A stretch of DNA of 64,000 bases from the NCBI GenBank assembly GCA_035605035.1, contig DATNHI010000106.1, forward strand, positions 849 to 64,848. The letters run 5' to 3'. This document shows, piece by piece, positions 11,586 to 62,377 of this stretch (its first letter is position 1; every line of letters starts with the position of its first letter). The position numbers were made by a program, and so were the translations under genes. Source of the stretch: Verrucomicrobiia bacterium. GTDB lineage: Bacteria > Verrucomicrobiota > Verrucomicrobiia > Limisphaerales > UBA11358. A model generated the notes under the pieces. It had not been told where the DNA came from and ran no database searches. It worked only from the letters and a program-made list of their open reading frames with translations.

Positions 11586-11755
11586 GCCCGAAGTCCGAAT
11601 ACCGAAATCCGACCCGTCCTCCGTAGCAGCACTGCGGAGGGTGGAAAGAAATCCGAATTGCGAAATCCGATCAAGTGAGGCGAGCACTCACGAGCATTTC
11701 GGGCTTCGGGTTTCGGCCTTCTTTTGGAATTCGGATTTCGGGCTTCGGATTTATC
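11586..11755. repeat. composite heptad-periodic inverted repeat (atccgaa / ttcggat units) with a nested cctccgtagcag..ctgcggagg hairpin
   Basis: Left side cccgaagtccgaataccgaaatccga...atccgaattgcgaaatccga. Right side cttcgggtttcgg...ggaattcggatttcgggcttcggattt. Confidence 0.8.
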
Positions 11756-12787
11756 TCAGTAACTCATCCGGTCCAGCTTCACCTTGCCGCGGAAAATCCA
11801 GTAGATGCAGACGGTGTAGGCAATCACCAGCGGCACGCCGATGCACGCGATGATGAGCATAATCTCCAACGTCTTCGGCGAGGACGCGGCGTTGATAATC
11901 GTCAGGCTGTTTTCCGGGTTCGGTTGGCTGAAGACGAGATTCGGATATTGGTCCAGGCCAAACAACGCCATCAGCGTAATCATCGTCGCGCACGATGACA
12001 GGAACGCCTTCCAGTCGCGGCCGTGGTAAAATTCGCGCGGGATGTTGGCGATGGCGAGCATGTTCGCCAGCGCGATGCTGAACAACCAGGGATTTTCCCG
12101 CACGCGCGCCGCCATGTGCGGAACGTAGAGCAGTGTGGCCATCGTCGTGATGGCAGCGCAGATCACGAAGAAAATGATGCTGTTCATCGCCCAGCCGCGC
12201 AATTTGTCGTGGAGCGGGCCTTCGGTTTTCATCAGGCCGTAAATCGCGCCGTGCATCATGAACAACGCGACGGTCGTAACACCGAGCAGCAACGGATACG
12301 GTTTGAGCAAACCCAAAAACGTCCCGGCGAATTCGCCGTTTTTGTCAATCGGAACGCCCCAGGCGATGTTGCCCATCGCTACACCGATGAGCAACGCTGA
12401 CACAAGGCTGCCGGCAGAAAAGCCGATGTCCCACATCTGTCGCCACCAGCGCATCGGTTGTTTGCTGCGGAATTCGATGGCCACGGCGCGAAAGATCAGC
12501 GCCACCAGCAGCAGGACGAAAGCCAGATAAAAACCGGAGAACACCGTGGCATAAACGTTCGGAAACGCGGCGAAGAGCGCGCCGCCGCCGGTGACCAGCC
12601 AGACTTCGTTGCCGTCCCAGACAGGCCCGATGGCATTGAGCAACGTGCGCCGTTCCATATCATCCTTCGTGAACAGGTGGAGCGCGCCGATGCCGAGATC
12701 AAAGCCGTCGAGCATCGCGTAGCCGGTAAACAGCACCCCGACGAGGATGAACCAAGTAGTATTCAGATCAAAATTGGCAGAGTTCAT
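11756..12787 (-). CDS. cydB: cytochrome bd ubiquinol oxidase subunit II
   Basis: MNSANFDLNTTWFILVGVLFTGYAMLDGFDLG is a typical CydB N-terminus. ORF track start 12868 reads through the repeat (SDFGIRISDF) and is rejected. Confidence 0.85.
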   Translation of the reverse strand: MNSANFDLNTTWFILVGVLFTGYAMLDGFDLGIGALHLFTKDDMERRTLLNAIGPVWDGNEVWLVTGGGALFAAFPNVYATVFSGFYLAFVLLLVALIFRAVAIEFRSKQPMRWWRQMWDIGFSAGSLVSALLIGVAMGNIAWGVPIDKNGEFAGTFLGLLKPYPLLLGVTTVALFMMHGAIYGLMKTEGPLHDKLRGWAMNSIIFFVICAAITTMATLLYVPHMAARVRENPWLFSIALANMLAIANIPREFYHGRDWKAFLSSCATMITLMALFGLDQYPNLVFSQPNPENSLTIINAASSPKTLEIMLIIACIGVPLVIAYTVCIYWIFRGKVKLDRMSY

Positions 12788-12965
12788 GGGTGGCAGGAAA
12801 TCCGAAATCCGAATGCCGAAATCCGAAAGAAATCCGAATACCGAATTCCAAAAAAGCGCGGCGCACAATCACTGGCATTCCGGGTTTCGGATTTCGGGCT
12901 TCTTTCGGGTTTCGGATTTCGAGCCTCGGATTTTGGGCATCGGGTTTCGGATTTTGAGTTCATGG
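12788..12965. repeat. heptad-periodic inverted repeat filling the cydA-cydB spacer
   Basis: aatccgaaatccgaatgccgaaatccgaaagaaatccgaataccgaa ... ggtttcggatttcgggcttctttcgggtttcggatttcgagcctcggattttgggcatcgggtttcggatttt. Confidence 0.85.
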
Positions 12966-14327
12966 TTATTCCCGTGTTGGCAAAGCGAGCTTGCCTGCCG
13001 GGGTCAGGTCAGCGTCGTCCGGTCCGTGCTGGATCTTGTCGTTGAGCAGATAAATGAACACCGCGAACAGCAGGAAATAAATGAACGTGAACAAAATCAG
13101 CGACGAGAGAACGGCACTTTTTGCCACGACGGCCGACAAACCCGCCGGCGTGCGCATCAGGCCATAGACAATCCATGGTTGGCGTCCGACTTCGGCGGCG
13201 AACCAACCGAGCTGGTTGGCGATTTGCGGTCCGAGCACGGAGAAAACGAGGATCCACAGCAGCCAGCGCCGTTCATGCAGCGAGCCGTGGCGGAAATACA
13301 AAAAGCCCAGTGCTGCAATCGCGATCATCGTGAAGCCGACGCCTACCATGCCGTGAAAAAACAGGAACGACGCTTCGACCGGCGGACGGTCTTCGGGCGC
13401 GAAGGCGTCCAGACCGGTTACCATCGTTTTGGTTTCAAAGCCGACGAGAAAACTCAACAGCCCCGGCCATTGCAGGCCAACGACCTTCTCCTGTTTTTCG
13501 TCCACATAACCCACGAGCGTCAGCGGTGCGTTGGAAGAAGTTTCATAGAGTCCTTCAAACGCGGCGAGTTTGGCCGGCTGATTTTTCGCCACGCTTCGGG
13601 CACTGCTGTCACCGCTGACCAGTTGCAGCAGCGAGGCGACCAGCGCGACGGTCAAACCGACCCGTAGCGATGCCCGCGCAAAATCCAAGTTTCGTTTCTT
13701 CAGAAGATACCACGCGCTGACGCTCACCACGAGGAACGCGCCCGCCTGCCACGCCCCGCACAACACGTGAAACAGCCGGTCCACCATTGATGGATTGAAC
13801 ACCAGTTGCCAGAAATCCTTGACTTCCGCGCGCGCCACGCCGTTGTGAGTCACGATTTGGTAACCGGCGGGCGTCTGCATCCACGAGTTGGCGACGACGA
13901 TCCAGACCGCGCTGAAATGCGCGCCCAGACAGACCATGCACGTGGAAAAGAAATGCAGCTTGCGACTGACTTTGTCCCAACCAAACAACAACACCGCGAG
14001 AAAACCGGATTCGAGGAAGAACGCGAAGATCCCTTCCGCTGCCAGCGCGCTGCCGAACACGTCGCCGACAAAACGCGAATACGTCGCCCAGTTTGTGCCG
14101 AACTCGAATTCCATCACGATGCCGGTCGCCACGCCGATGGCGAAGGTGAGGGCGAAGACCTTCGTCCAGAATCGTGCCATCTGGTGATAGACCGGATTTT
14201 TGGTTTTGAGCCACAATCCCTCCATGCAGAGGAGCAGAATGCCAAGGCCGATGCTTAACGGCGGGTAGAGATAATGAAACGCGACCGTGGCCCCGAACTG
14301 GATGCGGGCAAGTGTCAATACATCCAT
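12966..14327 (-). CDS. cydA: cytochrome bd ubiquinol oxidase subunit I
   Basis: [28 protein letters not shown]...[12 protein letters not shown] are CydA hallmarks. Confidence 0.9.
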
Positions 14328-14419
14328 ACGCCCTAATTTTGCCGGGGCGAAGTCAAACGGTCAAGACGCCAAAAAAGGAATCAAAAAACATTTTCCCGAT
14401 TTGTTGATTTCCTGATTCA

Positions 14420-19357: not shown

Positions 19358-19362
19358 AGGTG

Positions 19363-32015: not shown

Positions 32016-32019
32016 AATC

Positions 32020-32111
32020 AGGCTCCAGGTTCTTGGGTCGGGTTTCTGGGGAAAGGCAGGATGTTAAGCCCGGCCCCCGGACGCCAGACGCCGGCCCCTA
32101 GACCCCGACTC
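32020..32111. repeat. heptad-periodic inverted repeat in the infB-rbfA spacer
   Basis: ggctccaggttcttgggtcgggtttctgggg ... ccccggacgccagacgccggcccctagaccccgactc. Confidence 0.75.
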
Positions 32112-32113
32112 TC

Positions 32114-33471: not shown

Positions 33472-34185
33472 ATGCAAGAATTTTCCCCGCTCGACGGCGC
33501 CATCCTCATAGACAAGCCTGCCGGCCCGACCTCGCACGACGTGGTGGACGCCATCCGCCGCAAGTTCAGCATCAAAAAAGTCGGCCATTGCGGCACGCTT
33601 GACCCGAACGCCACCGGTTTGCTCATCATCGTGCTTGGGCGCGGGACGAAGCTTTCGGAAAAACTGATGGGCGACGACAAGGTTTATGAAGGCGTCATCC
33701 AATTCGGCGTGGCCACCGACAGCTACGATGCCGACGGCGAAATCATCGAAACAAAACCGGTTCCGCCGCTGACCGCGGAGCAGTTGAATGAAGCTGCTGC
33801 CGTGTTTATCGGCGACTTGATGCAAACGCCACCGATGGTTTCAGCCATCAAAAAAGACGGCGTGCCGCTCTACAAACTGGCGCGCCAGGGCATCGAGGTC
33901 GCACGCGAACCGCGGCTGGTTCACATTTACAATTTTCGTTTCAGGAATTACGAGCCGCCGCTCGGCCAATTTCGCATTGCCTGCACCAAAGGCACTTACG
34001 TCCGCAGTATCGCGCACGAACTCGGCCAGAAACTCGGCTGCGGCGCGCACCTGGCCGCGTTGCGGCGGGTGACTTCGGGAAAATTTGACGTGGCCGACGC
34101 AACGAGGCTGGATGACGTTCTCAAATTGACGGCCACCGAATTGGAGAAAAAGGTGATTCCGTTTCTGAAATTGGCAGCGACATGA
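33472..34185 (+). CDS. truB: tRNA pseudouridine(55) synthase
   Basis: ILIDKPAGPTSHDVV...GHCGTLDPNATGLL. Confidence 0.9.
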   Translation: MQEFSPLDGAILIDKPAGPTSHDVVDAIRRKFSIKKVGHCGTLDPNATGLLIIVLGRGTKLSEKLMGDDKVYEGVIQFGVATDSYDADGEIIETKPVPPLTAEQLNEAAAVFIGDLMQTPPMVSAIKKDGVPLYKLARQGIEVAREPRLVHIYNFRFRNYEPPLGQFRIACTKGTYVRSIAHELGQKLGCGAHLAALRRVTSGKFDVADATRLDDVLKLTATELEKKVIPFLKLAAT

Positions 34186-34322
34186 AAGCTCCAAGCACCA
34201 AGCGCCAATCTCCAGAGAAGCGCCAAATTCCGAACTCCAGGAAGTCTGACGGCAACGAGCGCGTTGTTTGGAATTTGAAGTTTGGAATTTCTCTGGTGCT
34301 TGGTGCTTGAATGTTGGAGCTT
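34186..34322. repeat. heptad-periodic inverted repeat in the truB-ribF spacer
   Basis: agctccaagcaccaagcgccaatctccagagaa ... ttctctggtgcttggtgcttgaatgttggagct, followed by a T-run. Confidence 0.8.
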
Positions 34323-34330
34323 CTTTTTTT

Positions 34331-35254: not shown

Positions 35255-35528
35255 TTAGGTTTAATGCAACCACTTTTACGGTAGCAACTTATATGCCAAG
35301 CAGAACGGCCTCGTCCTGATTTGAGTTTTTTCCGTCCATACGATTGTTCTTGAGTTTTCCGCAAATGCGGTTAGCATGGCGGGGTGTCAGTCTTCCGGTA
35401 TTCTGGCGTTCGCAGTCCCTGAAGTTCAACGGACCGATGAACAATTGTGCAGAACCGACGACGACCGGTCGTGAAGCAGAATCACCCTGTTTCACTGAAC
35501 TAAAACGGATTTTTCAGGTCTGATATTT

Positions 35529-37418
35529 ATGTCGCATCGAAAAAATACGCCGTCAGCCGGCGCCCCGCGCAAGCATAAGCATGGCGGCGGGCGCGGCGCA
35601 GGAACCAAACCGGTCCCGGCGCGGCGACGTTTTGTGATTTCCATTGCCAGGCGGGGACCGTCCAAACCGCTGGACACCAACGGAAAAGCCAAGCCGCACG
35701 CGGCCAATCTCTCTGCGGCCGGCACGCAAAAATTGCCGCCCGGCGGTCATGCCCCCGCGCCCATGGTTTCTTCCGTGGATTTGACGGAGACGGTCAAAAC
35801 GCTGCTCCACCTCGCCCAGGAGCACGGCTACATCACTTACGACGACATCAATGACGTTCTGCCGGACAACCTCAGTCCGGAGGATTTGGACGCGTTGCTG
35901 ACCAAATTGCGCAGTCTCGACGTGGAAATCGTCATGGACCAGGCCGAGGCCGAACGCACCCGGCAGCCCGAACCCGCGCAGCAGGAGGAAGCGGACGAGG
36001 ATGCGCGTCTCGAAATCCTCGATGACCCGGTCCGCATGTACATGAACCAGATGGGCAAAGTCCCGCTGCTCACGCGCGAACAGGAAGTCGAAATTTGCAA
36101 GCGGATCGAAGAGGCCGAGATCGAGATGAAGCGCATCGTTTACAGCCTCGGCTTCACCGCGAAGGAACACATCGCCATCGCGGAAAAACTGCTGTCCGAG
36201 CCGCCGAAGGAGCGGTTCGACCGGGTGATTGTGGACAAGAAAATTGCCAATCGCGAAGGCCATTTGCGCGATTTGCGCAAGCTCATCAAGAAAGTCCATG
36301 CGCTCGACCAAAAGGTGGACGCGAAGTATTTTGCCTGGCAGAAGGCCCTCCAGAAGGGCCGCAAGGAAAAGCTGCAGCGCGAGTTGAAGAAACTCGGCCT
36401 CAAGCTGCAGGAGATGTTTCCCCGTTTTTTCTACAAACAAAAGGTCGTCGAGGAAATGATCATCGTGGCGGGCAACGTCCATGAGAAATTTCAGGCGAGC
36501 CTGCGGCACATCCAGGAACTGGAAGCGTTGCGCACCACCACTGAGCGGCGGGCGGCGCTGGAAGCCGAGCGCGCCAAAATCCAGGTGCTCGAACAGTTCG
36601 TGCGGATGCCGCGCGAGGAATTTTTCAAGGTGTTCAGCGAATTGAAAGGCGCCGCCGACCGCGGGCTGAAGGCCAAGACGCACATGGCCGAGGCCAACCT
36701 GCGGCTCGTCGTGTCCGTCGCCAAAAAATACACCAACCGGGGCCAGTCGTTCCTGGATTTGATCCAGGAAGGCAACATCGGGTTGATGAAAGGCGTCGAG
36801 AAATTTGAATATCGCCGCGGCTACAAGTTTTCCACCTACGCCATCTGGTGGATTCGCCAGGCCATCACGCGCTCCATTGCCGACCAGGCCCGCACCATTC
36901 GCATCCCGGTGCACATGATTGAAATCATGAACAAGCTCTGGCGCGCGCAGAAGCAGCTCACCCAGGAACTGGGGCGCGAACCGACGCCGGAGGAGATTGC
37001 CGATGAAATGCACATGCCGGTCGCGCGCATCCACGCGCTGCTCAAGATGGCGCAACAGCCGGTGTCCCTGCACGCGCCGGTCGGCGATGACGGCGATGTG
37101 AGCGTGGGCGATTTCATCGAAGACAAGACCGCTGAGAATCCGTCCGAAGTCACCAGCTACAGCCTGCTCCGGGAAAAACTGAGCGACGTGCTGACGACGT
37201 TGACCGAGCGCGAACGCAAAATTCTCGAAATGCGTTTCGGCCTGCTCGACGGCTACGAGCGCACGCTCGAGGAAATCGGCAAGATGTACAACGTCACGCG
37301 GGAACGCATCCGCCAGATTGAAGCCAAGGCGCTGCGCAAGCTGCGGCACCCGACGCGCGTCCGCCATCTCCAGGGATTCCTCGACACGCCGGAGCCCGAA
37401 GTGAGCACGACAGCGTAG
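35529..37418 (+). CDS. rpoD: primary RNA polymerase sigma factor RpoD
   Basis: [21 protein letters not shown]...[58 protein letters not shown]...[30 protein letters not shown]. Start uncertain (basic N-terminal extension; MVSSVD is an alternative). Confidence 0.9.
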
Positions 37419-37419
37419 T

Positions 37420-37516
37420 CATTTACGATTTACGATTTTTGATTTACGATTTGCCGGTGCGCGCAAGTTGGCAAGGAGCGCGTAAATCGTAAATCGTGAA
37501 TCGTATATCGTAAATC
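37420..37516. repeat. heptad-periodic inverted repeat (atttacg units) downstream of rpoD, probable terminator-like structure
   Basis: atttacgatttacgatttttgatttacgattt ... gcgtaaatcgtaaatcgtgaatcgtatatcgtaaat. Confidence 0.8.
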
Positions 37517-37518
37517 CA

Positions 37519-46803: not shown

Positions 46804-46894
46804 AATTTTGTCAACGGCCGCGTCAATGCACATGCCGCAATTGATTTTCACGTTGGGTGAACTTGATGACCGCGGACTTCGCGGTTCAGAGGCT

Positions 46895-47045
46895 CGCCCT
46901 TCCAAATGCCTGCGAGATTAGCTGTCGGGCTTGGCCTTGAAAGTGGCCCGGTGATTCCGTTGCCGGAACCCCTGCGCCCCGTCCTCAACTTTGAGGAATT
47001 TGGGTCTCCCGCATCGGCTTGCAGGAAGGCAAACCGATTTAGGCT
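46895..47045 (-). promoter_or_regulatory. ydaO/yuaA-type (c-di-AMP) riboswitch candidate upstream of kdpFABC
   Basis: Minus-strand RNA AAAUCGGUUUGCC..GAUGCGGGAGACCCAAAUUCC...GACGGGGCGCAGGGGUUCCGG...GCCCGACAGCUAAUCUCGCAGGC. Matches remembered conserved blocks GCGGGGGACCCA, GGGGUGAAUCC and CCCGUCAGCUAACCUCGUAAGCG. Confidence 0.65.
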
Positions 47046-47110
47046 GCAACGGCCAAAGTTAATCACAGCTTCCAAAGTTTGTCAACTCCGCCGCAAACGG
47101 GCTGTTTTTA

Positions 47111-48688: not shown

Positions 48689-48693
48689 CGGTT

Positions 48694-49126
48694 TTGGAAG
48701 GGCTGTAAGCCGAATTCTGTCTTCACCCTTGCGGATGGAGAGAACCATTTGTCTCAGCAGCCGATACCCGGAACCCGTCCCGCGTTGGCGGGACCGGAGC
48801 GGGCCGCTCCGGAGTTCCCTATTTGGCCTTGCACCCGATGGGGTTTTCCGTGCCGCGTCGCTTGCGCTTCGCGCGGTGGTCTCTTACACCACCTTTTCAC
48901 CCTTGCCCCTCTGAAATTTCAAATTTCAAATTTGAGATTCCAAAGCGGCGGTCTGTTTTCTGTGGCACTGTCCGTCGGGACGGCTCGCGCCGCCGCCGCC
49001 CGCGTGTATCCTCTGAAATCTCAAATCCGAAATTTGAAATTCCAAAAGGTTACGCGGCATCGCGCCCTTTGGTGTTCGGACTTTCCTCTGCCGGCTCGCG
49101 CCGGCGGCGATTCTCCGCCCTTCCAA
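48694..49126 (-). ncRNA. rnpB: RNase P RNA, bacterial type A
   Basis: Minus-strand GGAAGGGCGGAGAAUCGCC...CAGAGGAAAGUCCGAACACCAAAGGGCGCGAUGCCGCGUAAC...CAGUGCCACAGAAAACAGACCGCC...AAGGGUGAAAAGGUGGUGUAAGAGACCACC...GCAAGGCCAAAUAGGGAAC...GACAGAAUUCGGCUUACAGCCCUUCC. P1 closes with GGAAGGGC/GCCCUUCC. Confidence 0.9.
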
Positions 49127-49280: not shown

Positions 49281-50984
49281 ATGGCTGAAAAAGACGATTA
49301 TCTGTTGGACTTGCTGGTGGACCTCGGCTCCGTGAATGCCGAACAGGTCGCCGCCGCCCGCCAGGAGGCGCAAACCGCCGGCGTGGGCGTGGTGGACCTG
49401 TTGCTGGCCAACAAAGTTATCCGGCCCGCCGATGTCACCCAGGCCAAGGCCGCGCAATTCGGCGCGGAGGTCGTCCAGCTCGCCAGCCTGCGGATCCCCG
49501 ACGAAGTCATTTCCGTCATTCCCCGCCACATCGCCAAAAAATACCGCGTCGTCCCCATTATGAAAAGCGATGGCAAGGTCGCCGTGGCCATCGCCGACCC
49601 GTCGGATCTGAATACGATTGATTCACTGACCCACCTGCTGAACGCGGAAATCGAACTCCGCGTGGCTTCGGAGCAGGACATTGAAAACGCGCTGGGGCGG
49701 TATTATGGCGGCAAGGGAGACTCGGTGGTGGACAAGGCAATCCAGGAACTGACCCAAAGCGAAGTCGAAGTGCCCGTCGGCGACATGGGCGATGACAGCT
49801 CGGTGGTGGACGCGGACGCGCCGCTCATCCGGTTGGTGAACCAGATCATCGCCGACGCGTTCAAGATGCGCGCCTCGGACATTCATCTGGAGCCATTGGG
49901 CAAGCGCTTCCGGCTGCGCTACCGCATTGACGGTTTGCTGCACGAAATGAAGGCGCCGCCCAAACGGCTGCAGGCGTCCATCATCACGCGGCTGAAAATC
50001 CAGTCGAACATGTCCATCTCCGAGCACCGCATCCCGCAGGATGGGCGTATCCAGTCCAAAGTGGGCAACAAGTTCATTGACCTCCGCGTATCGTGTTTGC
50101 CGACGAACCACGGCGAAAGCATCGTGATGCGTATCCTGGACAAGGAAGGGTTGCGGCTCGGTCTCGGAGAACTCGGTTTTTTCACGGACGACCAGCAAAC
50201 TTTTGAAAGGTTGATCGGCCTGCCCGACGGCATATTGCTGGTGACCGGCCCGACCGGTTCCGGCAAAACGACGACGCTTTATTCCTGCCTGCACTTTATC
50301 AACCGACCGGACCGGAAAATCATCACCGTCGAAGACCCGGTGGAATATATTTTGGGCGGCATCAACCAGGTCCAGGTCAATGAAGTCGTCGGCCTTACCT
50401 TTGCCGCCGCGTTGCGCTCGATATTGCGCCAGGCGCCGAACGTCATCATGATCGGTGAAATTCGCGACCTCGAAACCGCGTCCATTGCCATCAACGCATC
50501 GCTGACCGGCCATTTGGTCTTCTCCACGCTGCACACCAACGACGCGCCGAGCGCTGTCGCCCGCCTGATTGACATCGGCGTGAAGCCCTTTTTGGTCGCA
50601 TCGTCCACGCGTTCACTCATGGCGCAACGCCTCGTCCGCAAGGTTTGCAAAAAATGCGCGGCGCCCTATCAAGCCACCGAAGCCGAGATGAGCGCGCTGA
50701 GTCTCACCCTGGACAACATGAAGGACGCCCACCTGCAGAAAGGGCGCGGCTGCAGTGATTGCTCGAACACCGGCTGCCGCGGACGGTTTGGCATTTTTGA
50801 AATTTTCGTCGTTGACGACGAGGCGCGGAAATTGATTTACGACCGGGCACCGTCGTCCGCGTTGCGCGCACGCGCCCGGGAAATGGGCATGCGGACGCTG
50901 CGCGAGGACGGCATCCGCAAAGTGCTCGCCGGCCTGACCACGCCCGAAGAGGTCATCCGGGCAACCATTGGGGACGAAGCGTGA
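49281..50984 (+). CDS. GspE/PilB-family secretion ATPase with N-terminal MshEN/T2SSE_N domain (copy 1)
   Basis: Walker A GPTGSGKTTTLY, Asp box, MIGEIRD, His box, tetracysteine CKKC...CSDC. Confidence 0.9.
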   Translation: MAEKDDYLLDLLVDLGSVNAEQVAAARQEAQTAGVGVVDLLLANKVIRPADVTQAKAAQFGAEVVQLASLRIPDEVISVIPRHIAKKYRVVPIMKSDGKVAVAIADPSDLNTIDSLTHLLNAEIELRVASEQDIENALGRYYGGKGDSVVDKAIQELTQSEVEVPVGDMGDDSSVVDADAPLIRLVNQIIADAFKMRASDIHLEPLGKRFRLRYRIDGLLHEMKAPPKRLQASIITRLKIQSNMSISEHRIPQDGRIQSKVGNKFIDLRVSCLPTNHGESIVMRILDKEGLRLGLGELGFFTDDQQTFERLIGLPDGILLVTGPTGSGKTTTLYSCLHFINRPDRKIITVEDPVEYILGGINQVQVNEVVGLTFAAALRSILRQAPNVIMIGEIRDLETASIAINASLTGHLVFSTLHTNDAPSAVARLIDIGVKPFLVASSTRSLMAQRLVRKVCKKCAAPYQATEAEMSALSLTLDNMKDAHLQKGRGCSDCSNTGCRGRFGIFEIFVVDDEARKLIYDRAPSSALRARAREMGMRTLREDGIRKVLAGLTTPEEVIRATIGDEA

Positions 50985-51150
50985 GCAGTGGAATGCGTCC
51001 TTGACCAAATCAGTCCAAATGCGAATCTCCCGGCAAAAATTTTCACGTCCTGGCGCGCAACGATTCAATGCGCGCCCGGTCAAATCTGTGACCGACATGA
51101 TTCATGCGGCCGCTGTAGCCTGTTTAACGATTTAACCATTTAACGAACTC

Positions 51151-52266
51151 ATGTCTTACTCCATGTCTGATTTACTACAGTTGGTGGTGGCCGAAGGCGC
51201 CTCCGACCTGCACATCCGCGTTGGCACGCCGCCGGTCATCCGCGTGCACGGCATCCTGCACCGTGTCGAAGGCCCGTCGCTCAAGCCGGAGGACACCGAG
51301 GAATTAATGCGCAGCATCACCTCCGAGGAGCATATCCAGGGCACGCGCGAACGTGGCGGCGCGGACTTCGGGTTCGCGTTCGGCGAGGTGGCGCGCTTCC
51401 GTGTGAGCGTTTTCAAGGAGAAAGGCAATTTCGGCATCGTGCTCCGGCAAATTCCCAGCAAACTTCTGACAATGGAGGAAATCGGAATTCCGCCGAGCGC
51501 GAAGGAACTGCTCTACAAACCGCGCGGCCTGGTGTTGGTGACCGGCCCGACCGGTTGCGGCAAGACCACCACCCTCGCCACGATGATCAATATCATCAAC
51601 GAAGAACGGGACGAGGCACACATCATCACCATCGAAGACCCCATCGAATATTATCACAAGCACAAACGGGCGCTGATTACCCAGCGCGAGATCGGCGTGG
51701 ACGTGCCGAATTTTGCCGAGGGCCTGCGCCGCGCGTTGCGCCAGGACCCGGACGTGGTGCTGGTCGGCGAAATGCGCGACCTGGAGACGATTGACGCCGC
51801 CATCACCGCGGCGGAAACCGGGCACCTGGTCTTCGGCACGCTGCACACGACCGGCGCGGCCAAGACGATTGACCGCATCGTCAACGCCTTTCCGAACAAC
51901 CAGCAGGAACAGATTCGCATCCAGCTTTCGACGGTCCTCCAGGCGGTCATTTCGCAATTGCTGCTGCCGCGCATTGACAAGCCGGGGCGCGTGGCCGTTT
52001 TTGAAATCATGATCAACACACCGTCCATTTCCGCGCTCATCCGCGACAACAAAACGTTCCGCGTCCAGTCGGACATCCAGACCGGCGCCAAGTACGGGAT
52101 GGTGACGCTCGATTCGTTCCTGATTGACAAATATCTGCAAGGCCTGATCGCGCGCGAGGAAGTCATTACCAAGGCGCAGGACCCGACGACGATTCAACAG
52201 AAATTGCAGGAATTGGAACTGGCCCAGGCCACCGGCTCCGACACCGGGCCCAAATCAAAGGGCTGA
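51151..52266 (+). CDS. pilT: PilT-type twitching motility (retraction) ATPase
   Basis: [19 protein letters not shown]...[12 protein letters not shown]...[11 protein letters not shown]...[10 protein letters not shown]. Confidence 0.9.
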
Positions 52267-52276
52267 CCTTTTTCCC

Positions 52277-53983
52277 ATGGCCGAAGAAATTTCCAGTCCA
52301 TTGCTGTCGCTCATCAAGGAGCGGGAGCTGATTGACGACTTGCAATACGAAGAAGTCGTTGCCGAACTGAAGCGCACTGGCGCGCCTGTGATTGAGGTCC
52401 TGCAGGACTTCGGCGTCATGAAGCTCGACGACATCCTGCACGTGATGGCCGCCAACCTCGGCACCGAGGTCGTGTCGTTGCGCGACCGGGAATTTCCTCC
52501 CGCGCTGGTGCAGACGATTCCCGCCAAAGTCGCCCGCATGTATCACTGCGTCCCCGTCGCCTTGAAAGGCTCGACGGTCCAGGTGGCGCTGGCGGACCCG
52601 CTCGACCCGGCGCAGGCCGACGAAATCCAGTTTGCCGCCAAACAGGACGTGCAGGTGGTCGTGGCCGACCCCGCCGAAATCGAGAAGACCCTCGACCGGC
52701 TTTACGGCGCGGACGAAAGCGAAACCTTTTCGGAGATTCTCAAGGAGCTGGGCGCCGACACGGAAATCGCGCGCGAAGCCAGCGAGGCTGACGCCGACGA
52801 TGAAAAGCGCATGACCGAACTGGCCAACGAGGCGCCCATCGTAAAATTCGTCAATCTCGTGTTGCAACAGGCCATTCAGGACCGTGCGAGCGACATTCAT
52901 TTCGAGCCGTTCGAGACGGAATTTCGCATCCGTTACCGCGTGGACGGCGCGCTTTACGAAATGTCCCCGCCGCCCAAGCACCTGGCGTTGCCGGTCATTT
53001 CGCGCCTGAAAGTCATGGCCAACCTGAACATTTCCGAACGGCGCCTGCCGCAGGACGGCCGCATCAATTATGCGGTGGGGAACCGCCAGATTGACCTGCG
53101 CGTGTCCACGCTGCCGACGCAATTCGGCGAATCGCTGGTGTTGCGCGTGCTCGACCGTTCGGCGGTGAACCTGGAACTGGAATCGCTGGGCCTGCCCAAG
53201 CACGTGCAGGAATTCATGAAAGAGGTGATTCAACGGCCCAACGGCATTGTCATCGTCACCGGGCCGACCGGTTGCGGAAAAACGACGACGCTGTATTCCT
53301 GTCTGCGCCGCGTCAACGCGATTGACTCCAAGCTGCTCACGGCGGAAGACCCGGTCGAATATGACATCGAGGGCATCATGCAGGTGGCCATTCATGAGGC
53401 GGTCGGCATGACGTTCGGCAAGGCGCTGCGGTCATTTTTGCGCCAGGATCCGGACATCATCATGGTGGGTGAAATGCGCGACCTGGAAACCGCGCAGATT
53501 TCGATCCAGGCGTCGCTGACCGGCCACCTGGTGATGAGCACGCTGCACACGAACGATTCCGCGGGCGCGGTCACGCGTATGATTGACATGGGCGTCGAGC
53601 CGTTTTTGATTTCCTCGACCCTGATGGCCGTGCTGGCCCAGCGGCTCGTGCGGGTCATTTGCAAGAATTGCCAGACGCCCTTTGAGCCGACGGAGGACCA
53701 GTTGGCGCTGTTGAATCTTTCGCCGCATGATTTGGGCGACAAGGTGTTTCATTACGGGCGCGGCTGCTCGAACTGCAACGACACCGGCTACAAGGGCCGG
53801 AAAGGTATTTTTGAATTGCTCATCATCAACGAACCTATTCGCGCCCTCATCAACGAACGCGCGCCGACGGTGGTGTTGCGGCAGAAAGCCATCGAATTGG
53901 GCATGGTGACCTTGCGCGAAGACGGCTTGCGCAGCATCTTTGAAGGTGATACAACCATCGAGGAAGTCGTCAAATATACTTAA
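52277..53983 (+). CDS. GspE/PilB-family secretion ATPase with N-terminal T2SSE_N domain (copy 2)
   Basis: [23 protein letters not shown]...CSNC. Same architecture as copy 1. Confidence 0.9.
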
Positions 53984-55709: not shown

Positions 55710-55712
55710 CCA

Positions 55713-55798
55713 ATCTGGGGTTTGGGGTCTTGGGTCTGGGGTCCGGGTGCTGAAATCGGTCAGCCCCGGAACCGAGACGCCAGAACCCAGGCCCAAAC
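55713..55798. repeat. heptad-periodic inverted repeat between the toxin and antitoxin genes
   Basis: tctggggtttggggtcttgggtctggggtccggg ... ccccggaaccgagacgccagaacccaggcccaaac. Confidence 0.75.
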
Positions 55799-55803
55799 TT
55801 GAC

Positions 55804-56079: not shown

Positions 56080-56871
56080 GTGAACGCCATGAAGACGAAA
56101 TCTCGAATGTCGAATGCCCAATGCCGGACTGAAAAGCGAGGCCGTCGCGATTTTGTCATTCGTCATTCGACATTCGACATTCGTGCCTTCACCCTCATCG
56201 AACTGCTCACCGTCATGGCCATCATCGCCGCGCTGGCGGCGTTCCTGTTCCCCGTGGTGGGGCGCATCAAGCGGCAGCAATACATCAAGAACGCGACGGC
56301 GGAAATGGAACAGTTGGAGACGGCCCTTGACCGCTACAAGGCCGCCTACGGCTTCTACCCGCCGGACAATCCATGCAACCCCTTGGTCAACCAGCTCTAC
56401 TTTGAACTGTTGGGAACGACCAATTTGGCTGTTCCTCCTGCCGCGCCGTTCTATCAATCGCTTGACGACCCCACCGTGCAACTCAAGCAATCCGACTTTG
56501 CCAATGCTTTCGGCACCATGGCCGGGAACAATTGCGTGAGCGGTTTTATGAATTGCAGCAAGCCCGGTTCGAGCGAGGACACGCCCAAGGCCCAAAACTT
56601 CCTGCCCAATTTGAGACCCAACCAGACCACCCTCTACAGTAACAACCTTGTCGGGTTAAAATTGATCATCACTTCCGTCAAAGGGCCGGACGTGACGTAC
56701 AAGCCGCTGGGCCTCGGCGCGCCCGACATCAATCCCTGGCGCTACAATTCGTCGAGCCCGACGAACAATCCCGGCGCCTATGACCTGTGGGTCCAACTGG
56801 TAATCAGCGGGAAAACGAATCTCATCTGCAATTGGAACAAGCAAGTGCAATTGAACAGCCCGCTGCCCTGA
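56080..56871 (+). CDS. GspG-like pseudopilin (prepilin-type N-terminal domain)
   Basis: AFTLIELLTVMAIIAALAAFLFPV then AEMEQLETALDRYKAAYGFYPPDN. True start uncertain (GTG 56080, ATG 56089 or ATG 56107); all lie in or before the repeat. Confidence 0.75.
   Translation: MNAMKTKSRMSNAQCRTEKRGRRDFVIRHSTFDIRAFTLIELLTVMAIIAALAAFLFPVVGRIKRQQYIKNATAEMEQLETALDRYKAAYGFYPPDNPCNPLVNQLYFELLGTTNLAVPPAAPFYQSLDDPTVQLKQSDFANAFGTMAGNNCVSGFMNCSKPGSSEDTPKAQNFLPNLRPNQTTLYSNNLVGLKLIITSVKGPDVTYKPLGLGAPDINPWRYNSSSPTNNPGAYDLWVQLVISGKTNLICNWNKQVQLNSPLP
56098..56185. repeat. heptad-periodic inverted repeat (cgaatgt / acattcg units) covering the pseudopilin leader region
   Basis: aaatctcgaatgtcgaatgcccaatgccgg ... ttgtcattcgtcattcgacattcgacattcgtg. 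Confidence 0.8.
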
Positions 56872-57118: not shown

Positions 57119-58549
57119 ATGAAAACGGTTTATACTGCGATTATTTTCGTGCTGTTGATGACAGACTGTTTCGGCCAGTCTTTTTCGTATCCGACCAATG
57201 CCACGCTACGATGGAAACTGCCATTGGCTGGCGCATCGTTTGCTTTACCGGCTGTTGGGCCCGACGGAATAATTTATGTGATGCAGGATGCCTACCCTGG
57301 CCCTAATCTTTGGGCCATCAATCCAAACGGCACCACCAATTGGGAAAGCACCTTGTATGATGGCACGGTTTCGGTGCCAGTGGTTGGGTCCGACGGAAAT
57401 CTTTATATTTTCGCCACCACTAACTTCGGGAACTTCAATCTCTTCGCGCTCAACCTTGCTGATGGCAGCACGAATTGGTTCTATGTCGGCGATTCTGCTT
57501 CTGAAGGCTCTGATTGCCTCATGCCGGCACTTGATGCCGATGGCACCGTTTATTTTTGCACAAGCGCCGGCGCTATTGATGCCGTTACGAATGGTGTGCT
57601 TGAATGGTCGGCTCTTGGCGATATCGGTCTGGCGGATGGTTCGCCGGTGGTCGGGGCCGACGGCACAATTTATGCCTTTGCGGATGATTCACCACTGCAA
57701 TTCTACGCATTGAATGCCGATGGTTCTTTGAAATGGTCAACGAATTATCCCGGAGTCAGTTTTCCAGCTTATCCTCCGGCCATCGCAGCGGACGGCACCA
57801 TCTATTTTTCCGGCGGTCAGTATTTTTGTGCAGTTAATCCCGCCGATGGTTCAATCGAGTGGGAATTTTCAGCGGCAAATTTTGCGTTTAATTTTGAAAA
57901 TCCTGAAGTTGGCCCGAATGGGACAATTTATATCGAAGCCGTTTCTGACTCAGCTAATATAGCTACTGCTTATACGAATTTATTGTATGCACTCGCGCCG
58001 AACGGCACGGTTGAGTGGACCTTCCCCTTGCCTCAATACTATTCAGCTCATCCCCCGTCATTTCACGAATCCTCGTGTGCGATTGCCGCCGATGGAGAGA
58101 TTTATGTGACTACCACGGCTGGCACGGTTTACTCCATTGCTCCCAATGGGACCATGAACTGGTCGTTTCACACAAATTCAACCGGCTTGCACGCGCCCGT
58201 CATTGGGCCGGACGGCACAGTTTATGTGGACAGTTATGATAATGCCAATCTGTTTGCGTTTTACGGCCCCGCTCCGGTAGCTTGCAGTGCCTGGCCGCAA
58301 TTCAATAAAAATTCGAGACATGTTACCGCCGCCGCAACGGCGTATTTGAGCTCACTATTCATGCGCACCAACGGGTTTCAATTCAACATTACCGGAACCA
58401 GCAACCAGCCGGTTTGTTCCTGTGCCTCCAGTGACCTTGTGAACTGGACCAATATCGGCCGGATTGTTTTAACGAACGGAACTGCAAGTTTTGTGGATGC
58501 CCAATCCACTAATTTCCCGCGCCGATTTTATCGAGCTTTGCCGCAATAG
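57119..58549 (+). CDS. secreted PQQ-like/BamB-like beta-propeller repeat protein with C-terminal beta-sandwich-like tail
   Basis: Repeats DG.IY......L.A.N..DGS..W. Signal-like MKTVYTAIIFVLLMTDCFG. C-terminal ...FQFNITGTSNQP...SSDLVNWTNIG...FVDAQSTNFPRRFYRALPQ. AT-richer than flanks. Confidence 0.7.
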   Translation: MKTVYTAIIFVLLMTDCFGQSFSYPTNATLRWKLPLAGASFALPAVGPDGIIYVMQDAYPGPNLWAINPNGTTNWESTLYDGTVSVPVVGSDGNLYIFATTNFGNFNLFALNLADGSTNWFYVGDSASEGSDCLMPALDADGTVYFCTSAGAIDAVTNGVLEWSALGDIGLADGSPVVGADGTIYAFADDSPLQFYALNADGSLKWSTNYPGVSFPAYPPAIAADGTIYFSGGQYFCAVNPADGSIEWEFSAANFAFNFENPEVGPNGTIYIEAVSDSANIATAYTNLLYALAPNGTVEWTFPLPQYYSAHPPSFHESSCAIAADGEIYVTTTAGTVYSIAPNGTMNWSFHTNSTGLHAPVIGPDGTVYVDSYDNANLFAFYGPAPVACSAWPQFNKNSRHVTAAATAYLSSLFMRTNGFQFNITGTSNQPVCSCASSDLVNWTNIGRIVLTNGTASFVDAQSTNFPRRFYRALPQ

Positions 58550-58562
58550 CCGGTTTAATTTT

Positions 58563-59354: not shown

Positions 59355-59360
59355 TCCCCA

Positions 59361-59454
59361 AAAGCTAAAGGCTAAATGCTAAAGTCTAAAATACAGCTTG
59401 TGCGCCGGGCGCGGGAAAGAAGTTCAGCCTTTAGCCTTCAGCCTTTGGCCTTGG
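59361..59454. repeat. heptad-periodic inverted repeat (gctaaag / ctttagc units) at a pseudopilin 5' end
   Basis: aagctaaaggctaaatgctaaagtctaaaa ... gttcagcctttagccttcagcctttggccttgg. Confidence 0.8.
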
Positions 59455-60293
59455 TTTGCTCCGCCTTCACGCTCATCGAGCTGCTGGTGGTGATTTCCAT
59501 CCTCGGCATCCTCGCCGCGTTGACCGTGCCGGCGTTCAAAAATTTCGGCAAATCAAGCGTCAACCTCAGCGCCTCGCGGCAGATGCTCGACGCCGTGGCG
59601 CGCGCGCGCCAGCTCGCCATGAGCCAGCGCACCACCGTTTATATGGTCTTCGTCCCGACGAATTTCTGGAACGGCAACTCGGGGAGCTGGCCCAACAGTT
59701 GGTGGAGCGGTCCGCCCGGCCCCGGCCTGACGCCCGCGCAAAAAACCGCCGCCACCAATCTGTGCAGCGACCAATTGAGCGGCTACAACTTCATGGCCTA
59801 CGGCGCGATGGGCGATCAGCCCGGCCAGCATGCCTGGCATTATCTCGGATCGTGGCAGACGCTGCCCGACGGCGCGTTCATCGCCCAGTGGAAATTTGGT
59901 CCAAGTTATTTGACCAATTACGTGATTGACCTGGTCAATGGCGCCACCTACCCCGTCGCCGGGTTTCAGCGGACGACCGGTTTTATTCCGTTCCCGACCC
60001 AGGATTCGCCCATCGCGACCACCGTAACGAACCTGCCTTACCTCGCGTTCAATTATCTCGGCCAGTTGACCACCGAAGAATTGACGCCCGCGCCGCTGAC
60101 GCGGGACGCCTATGTCCCGCTGGCGCGCGGCAGCGTGCTGCCCGCCGTCAATCCCAACAAGGCGTTGCAATTCGGCAATCCCGACGTTGCGGAAATGCCG
60201 CCCGGCAACAGCACCAACATTTCCTACAACCTCGTTCACATCAACTGGCTGACGGGCCGCGCGGTCCTGGAATATCACAAAATGGGGCCATGA
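59376..60293 (+). CDS. minor pseudopilin (GspH/FimT-like)
   Basis: SAFTLIELLVVISILGILAALTVPAF...ASRQMLDAVARARQLAMSQRTTVYMVF. Start uncertain (ATG 59376 inside the repeat, or TTG 59451). Confidence 0.7.
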   Translation: MLKSKIQLVRRARERSSAFSLQPLALVCSAFTLIELLVVISILGILAALTVPAFKNFGKSSVNLSASRQMLDAVARARQLAMSQRTTVYMVFVPTNFWNGNSGSWPNSWWSGPPGPGLTPAQKTAATNLCSDQLSGYNFMAYGAMGDQPGQHAWHYLGSWQTLPDGAFIAQWKFGPSYLTNYVIDLVNGATYPVAGFQRTTGFIPFPTQDSPIATTVTNLPYLAFNYLGQLTTEELTPAPLTRDAYVPLARGSVLPAVNPNKALQFGNPDVAEMPPGNSTNISYNLVHINWLTGRAVLEYHKMGP

Positions 60294-61225
60294 AAATTTC
60301 AAGCGAGTTCAGAGTCCAGAGTCCAGAGTCCCGAGTCAACCGACTGCGGGCTATGGACTGTGGACTGCCGACTGTGGACTGTGGACTGCGGACTGGCAAC
60401 TGTGAGTCCGCCTTCACCATGGTCGAGATCGCCATCAGCCTGGCGATCATCGGCATTGCGCTCGTCGCCATCATCGGCGTGTTGCCCATCGGCTTGCGCA
60501 CGCAACGCGACAACCGCGAGGAAACCGTCATCAACCAGGACGCCACCGTGTTCATCGAAGCCATCCGCAACGGCCAGTTCGGACTGAATGATTTGACCAA
60601 TTACGTCTATGCCATCACGAATTATTGGGTTTGGTACAACCCCGATGGCACCCCCAACCGGAACGGAGTGAACGGTTACACCTATTCGGCTGCCTCGGCC
60701 ACGCCGCCGTATCCGACGGCCCCGTTCCCCATCAGTAGCGGGACGAACATCATCGGGCTTTTAAGCACACCGGAATACGTTTTTTTAGACAAAAACGGAA
60801 ACGGAAACTTTGTGCCGACGAACAACCTGTTCAGCGGCGGCATCAGCAACCACGTCGTCGCTTATGTCCGCTCCTTGAGCGGGCCGGCGGAGGAGAAACC
60901 GCCGCAGAACAACGACATCGTGGTGGGCGATGCGTTTGCCTACCGCATCCTGTGCGTGAACGCGCCGCTGGCGATGGACACGAATATGTTCACCCTCACT
61001 GCCTTTCAACCCAACCAGCCGCGGTACAACGCGGCGTTGACGGCCAGCCTGCATGAACTGCGGCTGACGTTTCTCTGGCCGCAACTGCCCAATGGCGCGT
61101 TGGGCGCCGGCCACCTGACCTTCCGCACGATGGTCGCCGGACAGGTGTCACAGATTTTCACCAATAACCAGTGGCTGTATTTTTACCAGCCGAATTCCTT
61201 TACCAACGTCGTCGCCGCGCAATGA
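60290..61225 (+). CDS. minor pseudopilin
   Basis: SAFTMVEIAISLAIIGIALVAIIGVLP. Start uncertain (ATG 60290, ATG 60353 or an in-frame GTG); all lie inside the repeat. Confidence 0.65.
   Translation: MKISSEFRVQSPESRVNRLRAMDCGLPTVDCGLRTGNCESAFTMVEIAISLAIIGIALVAIIGVLPIGLRTQRDNREETVINQDATVFIEAIRNGQFGLNDLTNYVYAITNYWVWYNPDGTPNRNGVNGYTYSAASATPPYPTAPFPISSGTNIIGLLSTPEYVFLDKNGNGNFVPTNNLFSGGISNHVVAYVRSLSGPAEEKPPQNNDIVVGDAFAYRILCVNAPLAMDTNMFTLTAFQPNQPRYNAALTASLHELRLTFLWPQLPNGALGAGHLTFRTMVAGQVSQIFTNNQWLYFYQPNSFTNVVAAQ
60305..60396. repeat. heptad-periodic inverted repeat (agtccag / tgtggac units) at a pseudopilin 5' end
   Basis: gagttcagagtccagagtccagagtcccgagtc ... ctatggactgtggactgccgactgtggactgtggactgcggactgg. 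Confidence 0.8.
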
Positions 61226-62277
61226 CTTCGAAATTTCAAATGACGCATTTGCATCGTGCGGGGAGCACACCCGCCCCGGGTGTGATTGGACGCGCCTCGC
61301 GTCCAATGATGCAGAATAGCGCGGCGGTTGCGTCCGGGAAATTTCCCCGCGTTGCCGGGGTTTCTCGCGAGGGCGCGAAAACCTGCACCCGAGGCGGGTG
61401 CGCTCCCCGCGCGTTCACCCTCGTCGAAGTCCTGGTGGTGATGACGTTGTTGTCGCTCATCGTGCTGGCATTGATGGCGGTGTTCAACAGCACGCAGACG
61501 GCGTTCCGCGCCAGTGTCACGCAGACCGATGTGCTCGAAGGCGGACGCGCGGCGGCGGACCTGATGGCGTCGGACTTGCGGCAGATGTCGCCGTCGCTCG
61601 GCGGCAGCAGCGCGTTTATCAACGGTTTTTACTCCCAGACGCCGGTCAATTTTTACGTCAACACCAATTCCAGCCTGCCGCTCGTGCAATCGCTGCCCGG
61701 CAGCACCGCGCAGCGGGTCAACGTGTTGGAGGGCTTTTTCGCCCTGGGCCGCGGCAACCTGAACGGCAGTCCGGCCTGGATCGGCGTCGGTTATGCGGTG
61801 TATCCGGGATCGCAAACCGATTTGAACCCGCTTTATCGCTTTTACCTGGCCACGAACGTCGCCGCCGCCAGTCCGCAGACGCTGTTCACCAACTTTACCT
61901 ATGCGGTCCTGAGCGGTGCGCTGACGAACTGGAGCCATCTGCTGGACGGCGTGGTGACTTTGACCGTGCATGCCTATGACACCAACGGTGTCTGGATGAC
62001 AAACGGCTACGCCTTCGGATACACCAAGCTCCCGAAGAACATGCTCCTGCTGCCGTCCGCTCCGGGTGCAACCGGCTTCTGCATGTTCAGCAACACGCTG
62101 CCCGCGTCCGTTGAGATTGAACTGGGCGTGCTCGAAGACCGCACGCTCCAGCGCGCCGCGACCTGGCCGAACGGTTCGCTGGCGCAAAGCAACTATCTCG
62201 CGCAGCAGGCGGGCAAGGTCCACCTGTTCCGGCAGCGCGTGACCATTCCCAACGTTGACCCCTCCGCGTACCAATGA
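61222..62277 (+). CDS. minor pseudopilin (GspJ/PilW-like)
   Basis: RAFTLVEVLVVMTLLSLIVLALMAVF...DLMASDLRQ. ATGA overlap start at 61222 or ATG 61306. Leader region full of GC palindromes. Confidence 0.65.
   Translation: MTSKFQMTHLHRAGSTPAPGVIGRASRPMMQNSAAVASGKFPRVAGVSREGAKTCTRGGCAPRAFTLVEVLVVMTLLSLIVLALMAVFNSTQTAFRASVTQTDVLEGGRAAADLMASDLRQMSPSLGGSSAFINGFYSQTPVNFYVNTNSSLPLVQSLPGSTAQRVNVLEGFFALGRGNLNGSPAWIGVGYAVYPGSQTDLNPLYRFYLATNVAAASPQTLFTNFTYAVLSGALTNWSHLLDGVVTLTVHAYDTNGVWMTNGYAFGYTKLPKNMLLLPSAPGATGFCMFSNTLPASVEIELGVLEDRTLQRAATWPNGSLAQSNYLAQQAGKVHLFRQRVTIPNVDPSAYQ
61255..61412. repeat. composite GC-rich palindromic element covering the pseudopilin leader region
   Basis: Outer arms gcggggagcacacccgcc and ggcgggtgcgctccccgc. 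Nested hairpin attggacgcg-cct-cgcgtccaat. Confidence 0.7.
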
Positions 62278-62283
62278 AGAACA

Positions 62284-62377
62284 AATTTACGATTTACGAT
62301 TTACGATTTACGATTGGGGAAAAATCGGCAAAGGCCGCTTCCTTCAATCATCAATCATCAATCATCAATCGTAAATC
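62284..62377. repeat. heptad-periodic repeat (atttacg x4 ... aatcatc x3, aatcgtaaatc)
   Basis: aatttacgatttacgatttacgatttacgatt ... caatcatcaatcatcaatcatcaatcgtaaatc. Confidence 0.8.

Follow-up and report, generated by a model that had tools for sequence, protein, structure and literature searches.

Inverted repeats built from tandem 7-nt units, different in sequence and alike in design, had been noticed at 11 loci within 64,000 nt of DNA from a Verrucomicrobiia bacterium (GenBank assembly GCA_035605035.1, contig DATNHI010000106.1, positions 849 to 64,848 of the forward strand; this whole stretch is referred to as the window). Which process builds such hairpins, and what keeps them at the same gene junctions while their units change? 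The host is a soil Verrucomicrobium of Verrucomicrobia subdivision 3 / Limisphaerales with 58% GC. In each element a unit of 6-10 nt, in most cases 7 nt, is repeated in a row, then comes a GC-rich loop (10-33 nt) and after it the complementary unit, likewise repeated. We give about even odds (a probability of roughly 0.5) to the reading that these are paired inverted microsatellites, comparable to the STRR (short tandemly repeated repetitive) elements of cyanobacteria, which would originate by slippage and arm-to-arm copying and be tolerated only where the transcript closes a stem-loop.

All 11 loci were recovered at the positions and with the units that the sequence-only reading had assigned to them, and Tandem Repeats Finder reports a period-7 array at every one. 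According to a repeat search of the window these arrays pair as inverted repeats with arms of 24-54 nt that are 74-89% complementary. Periodicity was scanned in a fixed 21-nt window for periods 4-15 with local shuffles as control. At a threshold of at least 15 self-matches in 21 positions, period 7 yields 19 arrays vs 0.43 in the shuffles and the other periods 0-6, apart from period 14 (16 arrays), a harmonic of 7. At 17 or more self-matches period 7 retains 14 arrays vs none in the shuffles. Period 7 is the sole enriched non-harmonic period in the window, contrary to the outcome that would have refuted the observation, and the scan finds no further period-7 locus in the window beyond a weak stretch at 2570-2598. 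The predicted folds are likewise stable for 10 of the 11 loci, with z-scores of -3.3 to -7.8 against shuffled sequences and folding energies (dG) of -30 to -83 kcal/mol, the exception being the element at 32016-32113 (z = -0.9). The weak stretch (GAATCTTGAATCTGGAATTAAG) is located within the loop of a non-periodic inverted repeat at 2534-2621.

The design was thus correctly recognised from the letters alone, while the description of its location is partly wrong. Five loci are indeed intercistronic between co-oriented genes. One lies between convergent genes, one in the gene for RNase P RNA and four within open reading frames (ORFs) of pseudopilins.

The comparison with relatives covers the 64-kb window and 20-kb loci. 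A search with TruB (33472-34185) returned 80 species-level genomes with 75-92% identity, nearly all labelled Verrucomicrobia subdivision 3 or Limisphaerales, and the synteny infB-rbfA-DHH-truB-ribF-rpoD is conserved across this set. A secretion ATPase (49281-50984) added 80 further metagenome loci with 77-96% identity, and a third set comprises seven contigs from other samples that are 97-99.95% identical to the window. The beta-propeller protein at 57119-58549 found no relatives in the metagenome scan. In total 161 sequences (2.3 Mb) were surveyed for hairpins. Among 459 long hairpin clusters, 100 show periodic arms that can pair in multiple registers. Period 7 prevails with 73 cases, followed by periods 6 and 8 (11 each), 9 (3) and 10 (2). 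As claimed, conservation is confined to periodicity and hairpin potential; period 7 itself is not universal, since periods of 6, 8, 9 and 10 nt are found in relatives at the same junctions.

Positions persist while units turn over. About 50 of 60 species hold a hairpin between infB and rbfA, made of at least seven unrelated types: period 7 with GGGTCTG or TTTTGAA, period 8 with GGAGTGAT, GGATTGAT or CGTTGAAT, period 6 with GATTAA, and one with a period of about 12. In 10 of the 60 this spacer is shorter than 45 nt. truB and ribF abut or are a few nt apart in ~25-30 of ~75 species (32 have spacers <45 nt), and the remaining species carry at least six hairpin types, two of them non-periodic palindromes. 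At the junction of the secretion ATPase gene and its paralogous neighbour at least eight period-7 unit families occur among species. The window itself has only a half-element there (51120..51147, plus strand; z -0.67), three 8-nt units GTTTAACG ATTTAACC ATTTAACG just before the ATG at 51151 and no complementary arm. It is probably a decayed element, because its units look like those in the 3' arm of CGTTGAAT-type hairpins with period 8, which relatives have between infB and rbfA.

Spacer lengths are bimodal, either below 45 nt or around 90 nt, and in the longer class 80-92% of the spacer is taken up by the main hairpin. The stem begins 3-4 nt past the stop codon and finishes 3-13 nt before the start codon. 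Intergenic periodic hairpins are distributed 47/5/2 over co-directional, convergent and divergent gene pairs vs 34/7/13 expected by intergenic length (p ~7e-4; gene calls from a crude GC3-based ORF picker). Unrelated palindromes resembling repetitive extragenic palindromic (REP) sequences occupy the same sites in other species. Taken together, the elements persist only in transcribed niches that are free of primary-sequence constraint, namely operon spacers, convergent 3' ends, cleaved pseudopilin leaders and the P8/P12 loops of RNase P RNA.

Such persistence might reflect selected RNA regulators. The hairpin would then be adaptive because it blocks 3' exonucleases, offers a site to RNase III or couples the cistrons and so tunes their expression relative to one another, with repeats as the easiest route to a long stem. 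Its maintenance through at least seven unit types at infB-rbfA and at least six, including non-periodic ones, at truB-ribF speaks for this, as do the consistent placement of the stem by stop and start codons, the enrichment between co-directional genes, a slightly higher conservation of orthologous elements than of 4-fold sites, and a proposal of this function for STRR as well (PMC2670836). A functional RNA, however, should betray its strand. We folded sense and antisense strands, as G·U pairs are permitted only in the functional one. Of 89 oriented periodic hairpins, 45 fold more stably as sense and 43 as antisense strand, with 215 vs 218 G·U pairs, hence no bias; the infB-rbfA and truB-ribF spacers alone likewise show no sense-strand bias. 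The test has power, since it is positive for two other RNAs. In 42 of 43 species the sense strand gives the more stable fold of the ribF-rpoD spacer of ~258 nt (G·U 591 vs 288; mean dG -68 vs -55 kcal/mol), and the RNase P inserts are strongly sense-biased. Moreover, covariation in orthologous elements is negligible, compensatory pairs being too few and alternative registers too many to be informative. As there is neither a G·U bias nor appreciable covariation, it looks as if complementarity in the mRNA context is maintained by a strand-symmetric process at the DNA level and not by selection on RNA pairs. The spacers are also often short or hairpin-free, and loops of RNase P RNA, to which no mRNA function applies, contain the same design. 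We hold selected regulators to be a tentative second choice, somewhat better than one chance in four.

The ribF-rpoD spacer that served as positive control corresponds in the window to 35255-35528 (plus strand), upstream of rpoD (35529-37418). It has no Rfam match at gathering score, and its sense bias suggests that the sigma-70 gene has a leader RNA whose structure is conserved.

How would a DNA-level process operate? Whole-unit indels are observed. In orthologous elements between rpoD and the gene of a metallo-beta-lactamase (MBL) hydrolase the 3' arm alone varies in length, by exactly 14 nt or two units, and the 5' arm is kept including an odd ATTTTTG. In more distant species changes of ACG to ATG are only partly mirrored by CGT to CAT. 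Units at a single junction can be one or two steps apart and form mixed arrays, e.g. GAAGAAT, GAAGGAA, GAAGGCA and GAATGCA. One or two mismatches recur in every unit of some stems (two per unit in the element at 62274-62387; GTGACAA/GTCACNN; GAAGAAT/ATTCTGC). Because these mismatches are periodic and repeated in every unit, the arms must be homogenised separately. Some arrays begin inside the upstream stop codon (ggATTAA continued by GATTAT..., or cTGATGCG continued by TGATGCG), as expected for local tandem duplication. These three features, whole-unit indels, stepwise units and stop-codon seeding, support the generative, sequence-independent mechanism with slippage that the sequence-only reading had put forward. 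Its other suggestion, an element that recognises structure, finds no support, as copies share neither termini nor loops nor target duplications.

In general, slippage loops of at least 5 nt escape MutS-type mismatch repair, and one arm of a quasi-palindrome can be copied onto the other by template switching. On this basis arms would gain and lose whole units through replication slippage, and their similarity would be kept by arm-to-arm copying, i.e. template switching within the quasi-palindrome, instead of selection on RNA base pairs. New unit variants would spread along an arm, so that over time the unit changes in sequence but not in period or design. Elements as a whole would be lost, reborn and sometimes duplicated nearby.

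Several observations weigh against this account. Two elements flanking cydB have 59 nt in common with 85% identity in direct orientation (11694-11752 and 12875-12933), so that cydB is flanked by direct repeats of one element, and the two elements in the RNase P RNA gene are direct duplicates as well (86% over 37 nt). These pairs show that whole elements are sometimes copied nearby and that slippage alone is insufficient. Two relatives, L008 and L005, have nearly the same identity to the window at 4-fold sites (0.74 and 0.73), yet units and periods of L008 are unrelated at two of three junctions. This all-or-none replacement fits an insertion of new DNA better than gradual drift. Orthologous elements reach 0.72-0.79 identity vs 0.59-0.73 at 4-fold sites, a comparison in which repeats inflate alignment identity; together with the ~50 of 60 infB-rbfA hairpins this hints at selection for the hairpin itself. 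No copy-number change was found in the seven near-identical contigs, in which the first five elements of the window are identical or differ by one single-nucleotide polymorphism, so slippage is slow on that scale. Finally, parts of the account are inferred from what is generally known, namely template switching between the arms, evasion of mismatch repair, Rho avoidance and translational coupling, and the orientation statistics depend on the crude ORF picker.

The replacement in L008 and the local duplicates could point to mobile elements resembling REPIN or MITEs (miniature inverted-repeat transposable elements), inserting into spacers and loops and having repeated transposase binding motifs as arms. 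REP-like GTAGCGGCG palindromes use the same sites, and some units are shared between non-orthologous sites, e.g. ATTTACG at 37421 and 62285. Against this, copies with the same unit have no common loop, termini or target-site duplication, with differing flanks in both pairs inspected (37419-37518 and 62274-62387; 32016-32113 and 55710-55803). Arrays are seeded on the local stop codon, a 7-nt unit is short for a specific protein site, and no transposase-like gene was seen beside any element. The 73 period-7 hairpins fall into 23 unit families, and units recur at about chance level (a match within one mismatch in any rotation or strand is estimated at ~2% per pair). A limited unit vocabulary as a sign of dispersal was rejected for this reason. 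Transposition is in our view unlikely, at about one chance in ten.

The individual elements of the window (E1 to E11) illustrate the spacer anatomy. E1 (11584..11755, no strand assigned) is of compound build, a hairpin with arms of ATCCGAA/TTCGGAT that encloses two small hairpins rich in GC (dG -83 kcal/mol, z -7.0). It lies in the 252-nt gap between an ORF at 10982-11503 (plus strand) and the convergent cydB (minus strand), as judged from gene calls of an identical contig. E2 (12788..12965, minus strand) fills the spacer between cydA and cydB, both identified by Pfam, with ~7 and ~10 units of ATCCGAA/TTCGGAT and an irregular 4-nt unit that is mirrored in both arms; its dG is -78 kcal/mol on the plus and -65 kcal/mol on the minus strand. 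E3 (32016..32113, plus strand), the weakly folding element, has degenerate GGGTCTG-like/CCAGACG-like arms rich in G tracts and lies between infB and rbfA. Its orthologues were found in four relatives, L005 among them; elsewhere period-8, period-6 or other period-7 types take its place. E5 (37419..37518, plus strand; z -7.8), between rpoD and the MBL hydrolase gene, consists of four ATTTACG and five CGTAAAT units and ends 3 nt upstream of the ATG at 37519. E7 (55710..55803, plus strand; dG -54 kcal/mol, z -6.5) shows TCTGGGG-like/CCAGAAC-like arms between a 97-aa toxin-like ORF with its stop at 55709 and a CopG/BrnA-type antitoxin with a probable ATG at 55804.

E4 (34186..34330, plus strand; dG -65 kcal/mol, z -7.2), with AAGCNCC/GGNGCTT arms, has a stem that begins immediately behind the truB stop; CTTCTTTTTTT and the GTG of ribF (34331) come next. 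No other element of the window has a terminator-like T tail. Together with the T-rich tails of 7 of 45 truB-ribF hairpins and the position of E1 between convergent genes, this brings to mind intrinsic terminators or attenuators between transcription units. Such tails are seen in only 1 of 50 infB-rbfA and 1 of 10 rpoD-MBL elements, though, and the stems span 90-170 nt with large loops, in contrast to canonical terminators. A terminator scan calls no element, four elements are located in coding sequence and one in the RNase P RNA gene (rnpB). Terminators are thus very unlikely as a general explanation and would suit E4-like cases alone.

Only E3 and E7 are rich in G tracts; the arms have a GC fraction of 0.26-0.49 in 8 of the 11 loci. 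With their 4-5 G tracts both elements recall the G-quadruplex repeats of Xanthomonas (PMC4692102), and CspB binds heptamer repeats (reviewed in PMC4679880). Thus the arrays might be protein sites, as for cold-shock-type single-strand binders (one per 6-7 nt), or quadruplex formers. The units are mutually unrelated, most of them without G tracts, and the complementary arm would sequester a single-strand site. We regard this as the least probable explanation, with hardly a chance of being right, E3 and E7 perhaps excepted.

Further palindromes of the window are GC-rich and non-periodic (10615-10669, 9272-9345, 2534-2621, 6074-6151, 6230-6287 and 8322-8384). Similar ones were seen between truB and ribF in five relatives and in rnpB of relative L095. 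Several begin with GTAGCG or TGTAGGAGC, and they look like a REP-like dispersed family.

The locus described at 48905/49010 is no spacer. It lies inside the RNase P RNA gene of bacterial type A (48690..49126, minus strand; Rfam RF00010, 224 bits, full length). The idea of a single hairpin was dropped, as the two arms sit in the loops of different RNase P helices and each folds on itself. According to the covariance-model alignment, E6a (49005..49052, minus strand) is a 44-nt insert in the P8 apical loop with AAATTTC-type units and an 18-bp self-folded stem, and E6b (48900..48952, minus strand) extends the P12 apex by GAAATTT units. Both can self-fold because their unit GAAATTTC is nearly palindromic. 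The sense fold is much more stable than the antisense fold in both, with -17.7 vs -5.3 kcal/mol for E6a and -22.4 vs -15.8 kcal/mol for E6b. An alternative loop-loop pairing of E6a with E6b is possible over 37 bp. In 13 relatives the P8 loop holds a short hairpin without repeats, and in P12 only four relatives show a palindrome, which is AT-rich and shorter. In L095 both loops contain a REP-like palindrome. Such repeat inserts inflate the apparent size of RNase P RNA. L095 and three further relatives (L096, L097, L099) have an additional ~95-nt insert near the 3' end that ends in a copy of the 5'-proximal AATTTCAAGAAGGGCTGGG; their RNase P RNA genes adjoin the ATPase gene.

Apart from RNase P RNA, the only Rfam 15 match in the window is a c-di-AMP riboswitch (46892-47055, minus strand; RF00379, 46.7 bits) upstream of a minus-strand gene ending near 46615; the spacers of the window match no family at gathering score.

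Four elements belong to pseudopilin ORFs on the plus strand. E8 (56089..56190), a CGAATGT/ACATTCG hairpin, covers the leader-coding part of an ORF whose frame is open from an ATG at 56089 or 56107 to the A/FTLIELL motif at 56188 (N_methyl motif at aa 35-57). E9 (59355..59465; GCTAAAG/CTTTAGC) has the ATG at 59376 within its 5' arm, and the 30-aa leader MLKSKIQ..SSAFSLQPLA..CSA/FTLIELL is kept in two relatives. E10 (60290..60412; GAGTCCA/TGGACTS, dG -56 kcal/mol) is situated in a 41-aa leader. E11 (62274..62387), with 4.4 copies of ATTTACG and 3.9 of CAATCAT, encodes part of a 38-aa leader (MKNKFTIYDLRF...SQSG/MALVITL). The ATGs of E10 (60290) and E11 (62274) each overlap the preceding stop codon as ATGA. 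In the window and its relatives 25 periodic hairpins, partly dependent cases as they include orthologues, end 0-39 nt (mostly 4-21 nt) upstream of an F-T-L-I-E-L prepilin motif. Across the full hairpin length (~106 nt) no stop interrupts the pilin frame in 22 of the 25, compared with 11 and 5 for the other two frames. A conserved ATG (MK...) lies just upstream and the stem begins 8-32 nt downstream of it, apart from E9. The resulting leaders have 27-50 aa. The niche accepts other hairpin kinds too, as shown by a non-periodic inverted repeat of 28-31 nt (61253..61415, plus strand; dG -111 kcal/mol) in the long leader of the pseudopilin ORF 61171-62277 (N_methyl motif at aa 80-102).

Heptamer arrays near the 5' end of an ORF could constitute phase-variable contingency loci, as a 7-nt indel changes the frame and unit gain or loss would switch the gene. 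Leader lengths are nevertheless conserved across species (27, 30 and 36-38 aa) and most elements are non-coding. The near-identical contigs showed no copy-number variation, none of them covering the pilin arrays, and exact-protein look-ups for E8-E11 in near-identical strains gave one short contig without arrays and two misses. Phase variation is highly improbable, a touch below even the terminators.

Three secretion-type ATPase genes precede the pseudopilin cluster (49281-53983), an arrangement common to the relatives: T2SSE (49281-50984), a PilT-like gene (51151-52266) and a second T2SSE-like gene (52277-53983). An intein or insertion in the ATPase of relatives, suspected from overlong matches, was ruled out; the extra match is the adjacent paralogous ATPase.

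If the elements arise as paired inverted microsatellites, why should the transcript matter? Unstructured untranslated RNA invites Rho and RNases. A stem-loop would close the extra 90-170 nt, so that no long unstructured untranslated RNA is left, and would bring the upstream stop and the downstream start a few nt apart at its base. Initiation at the downstream cistron would then depend on ribosomes arriving from upstream. In the pseudopilin genes it would require a stem to be opened whose start lies 8-32 nt past the ATG or which contains the ATG. Enforced translational coupling would be the likely consequence, and an added effect on the stability of mRNA 3' ends is possible. The RNA role that was proposed for the spacers is plausible in so far as it fits their anatomy, with a stem adjoining stop and start codons. 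Moreover, the conserved starts of rbfA, ribF, the MBL gene and the pilin genes are not preceded by any visible Shine-Dalgarno-like sequence, for which reason local structure is likely to determine initiation. If coupling holds true, the hairpins would be a compact, sequence-free tie between the translation of neighbouring genes.

This can be carried further. In this Shine-Dalgarno-poor lineage, the hairpins might be a general, sequence-free operon device that holds stop and start together for re-initiation across 100-nt spacers and locks pseudopilin starts for as long as the cistron upstream has not been translated. Periodic arms would tolerate register shifts and re-evolve fast, which would explain a design that persists despite sequence turnover, and the same logic would explain the 35-year-old puzzle of the cyanobacterial STRR. 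We consider such a device doubtful, at odds of about one in seven.

The hundreds of Limisphaerales genomes at hand allow birth, unit drift, replacement and loss to be traced junction by junction. The elements also have practical consequences. They mislead gene callers, as ORFs are extended through spacers and pseudopilins appear with leaders of 30-50 aa, and they may break assemblies.

Heptamer repeats are known from other bacteria. Heptanucleotides are the most abundant class of long simple sequence repeats (SSRs) in most prokaryote genomes, and slippage was proposed (Mrazek et al. 2007, as summarised in PMC4679880). Compared with the direct arrays of that survey, as far as the summary describes them, the elements presented here are systematically paired into hairpins and keep their position despite unit turnover. 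In Xanthomonas and Nostoc, intergenic heptamer arrays of GGGAATC and GGGGAYT, respectively, have been described (Rehm et al. 2015, PMC4692102). In Xanthomonas 70-75 cases per genome are convergent pairs able to form stem-loops, and the arrays occupy the same gene junctions in related species with varying length and sequence (PMC4692102). The convergent pairs forming intergenic inverted repeats are the common feature. Unlike this single G-rich family with quadruplex potential, the units observed here are diverse and often AT-rich, and dimers of GGGAATC or GGGGATT were not found here.

REP and REPIN sequences, palindromes associated with RAYT transposases, likewise form co-transcribed hairpins at intercistronic and 3' positions, and in some relatives REP-like GTAGCGGCG...CGCCGCTAC palindromes occupy the same junctions and the loops of RNase P RNA. 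A REP family comprises many nearly identical copies of one palindrome of 20-40 nt whose GTAG end is conserved. The elements of the window, in contrast, share no sequence between loci beyond the unit level, bar two local duplicates, and their arms are internally periodic. They differ from MITEs in that the flanks of same-unit elements differ without target-site duplication, and from intrinsic terminators (a compact GC-rich stem with short loop and U tract) in that a T tail is found in E4 only.

The closest resemblance is to the STRR. The record of these heptamer hairpins in cyanobacteria goes back to 1990, and to our knowledge neither a function nor an origin has gained acceptance. Their unit families are CCCCAGT, TTGGTCA and CAACAGT, and the STRR insert of cyanobacterial rnpB is located in P12. 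Between hupS and hupL the 7-bp repeats form hairpins for which transcript stability and translational coupling were proposed (PMC2670836), and STRR inside the gene for RNase P RNA of heterocyst formers are the subject of Vioque 1997, going by its title as cited in PMC2858038. Both systems have dispersed tandem 7-nt units that are mostly non-coding, hairpins between co-transcribed genes and a presence in a peripheral helix of RNase P RNA. Unlike the STRR of heterocyst-forming cyanobacteria with their three families, the elements described here belong to another phylum and a genome with 58% GC, in which many units occur that are unrelated to one another. Nearly every array has a complementary partner, periods range from 6 to 10 in relatives, and some elements lie inside translated pseudopilin leaders. 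No tandem dimer of the three STRR units occurs in the window or the 2.3 Mb of relatives.

A full-text literature search retrieved no paper linking Verrucomicrobia with heptamer repeats. The host phylum, the many unrelated units per genome, the variable period per junction, the location in pseudopilin leaders and the comparative evidence for maintenance at the DNA level appear to be new. On the reading favoured here, Verrucomicrobia have in these elements their counterpart to the STRR hairpins of cyanobacteria and to the inverted GGGAATC arrays found in Xanthomonas. That the design recurs in a second, unrelated lineage, its insertion in RNase P RNA included, speaks for a general mutational route and against a cyanobacterial peculiarity.

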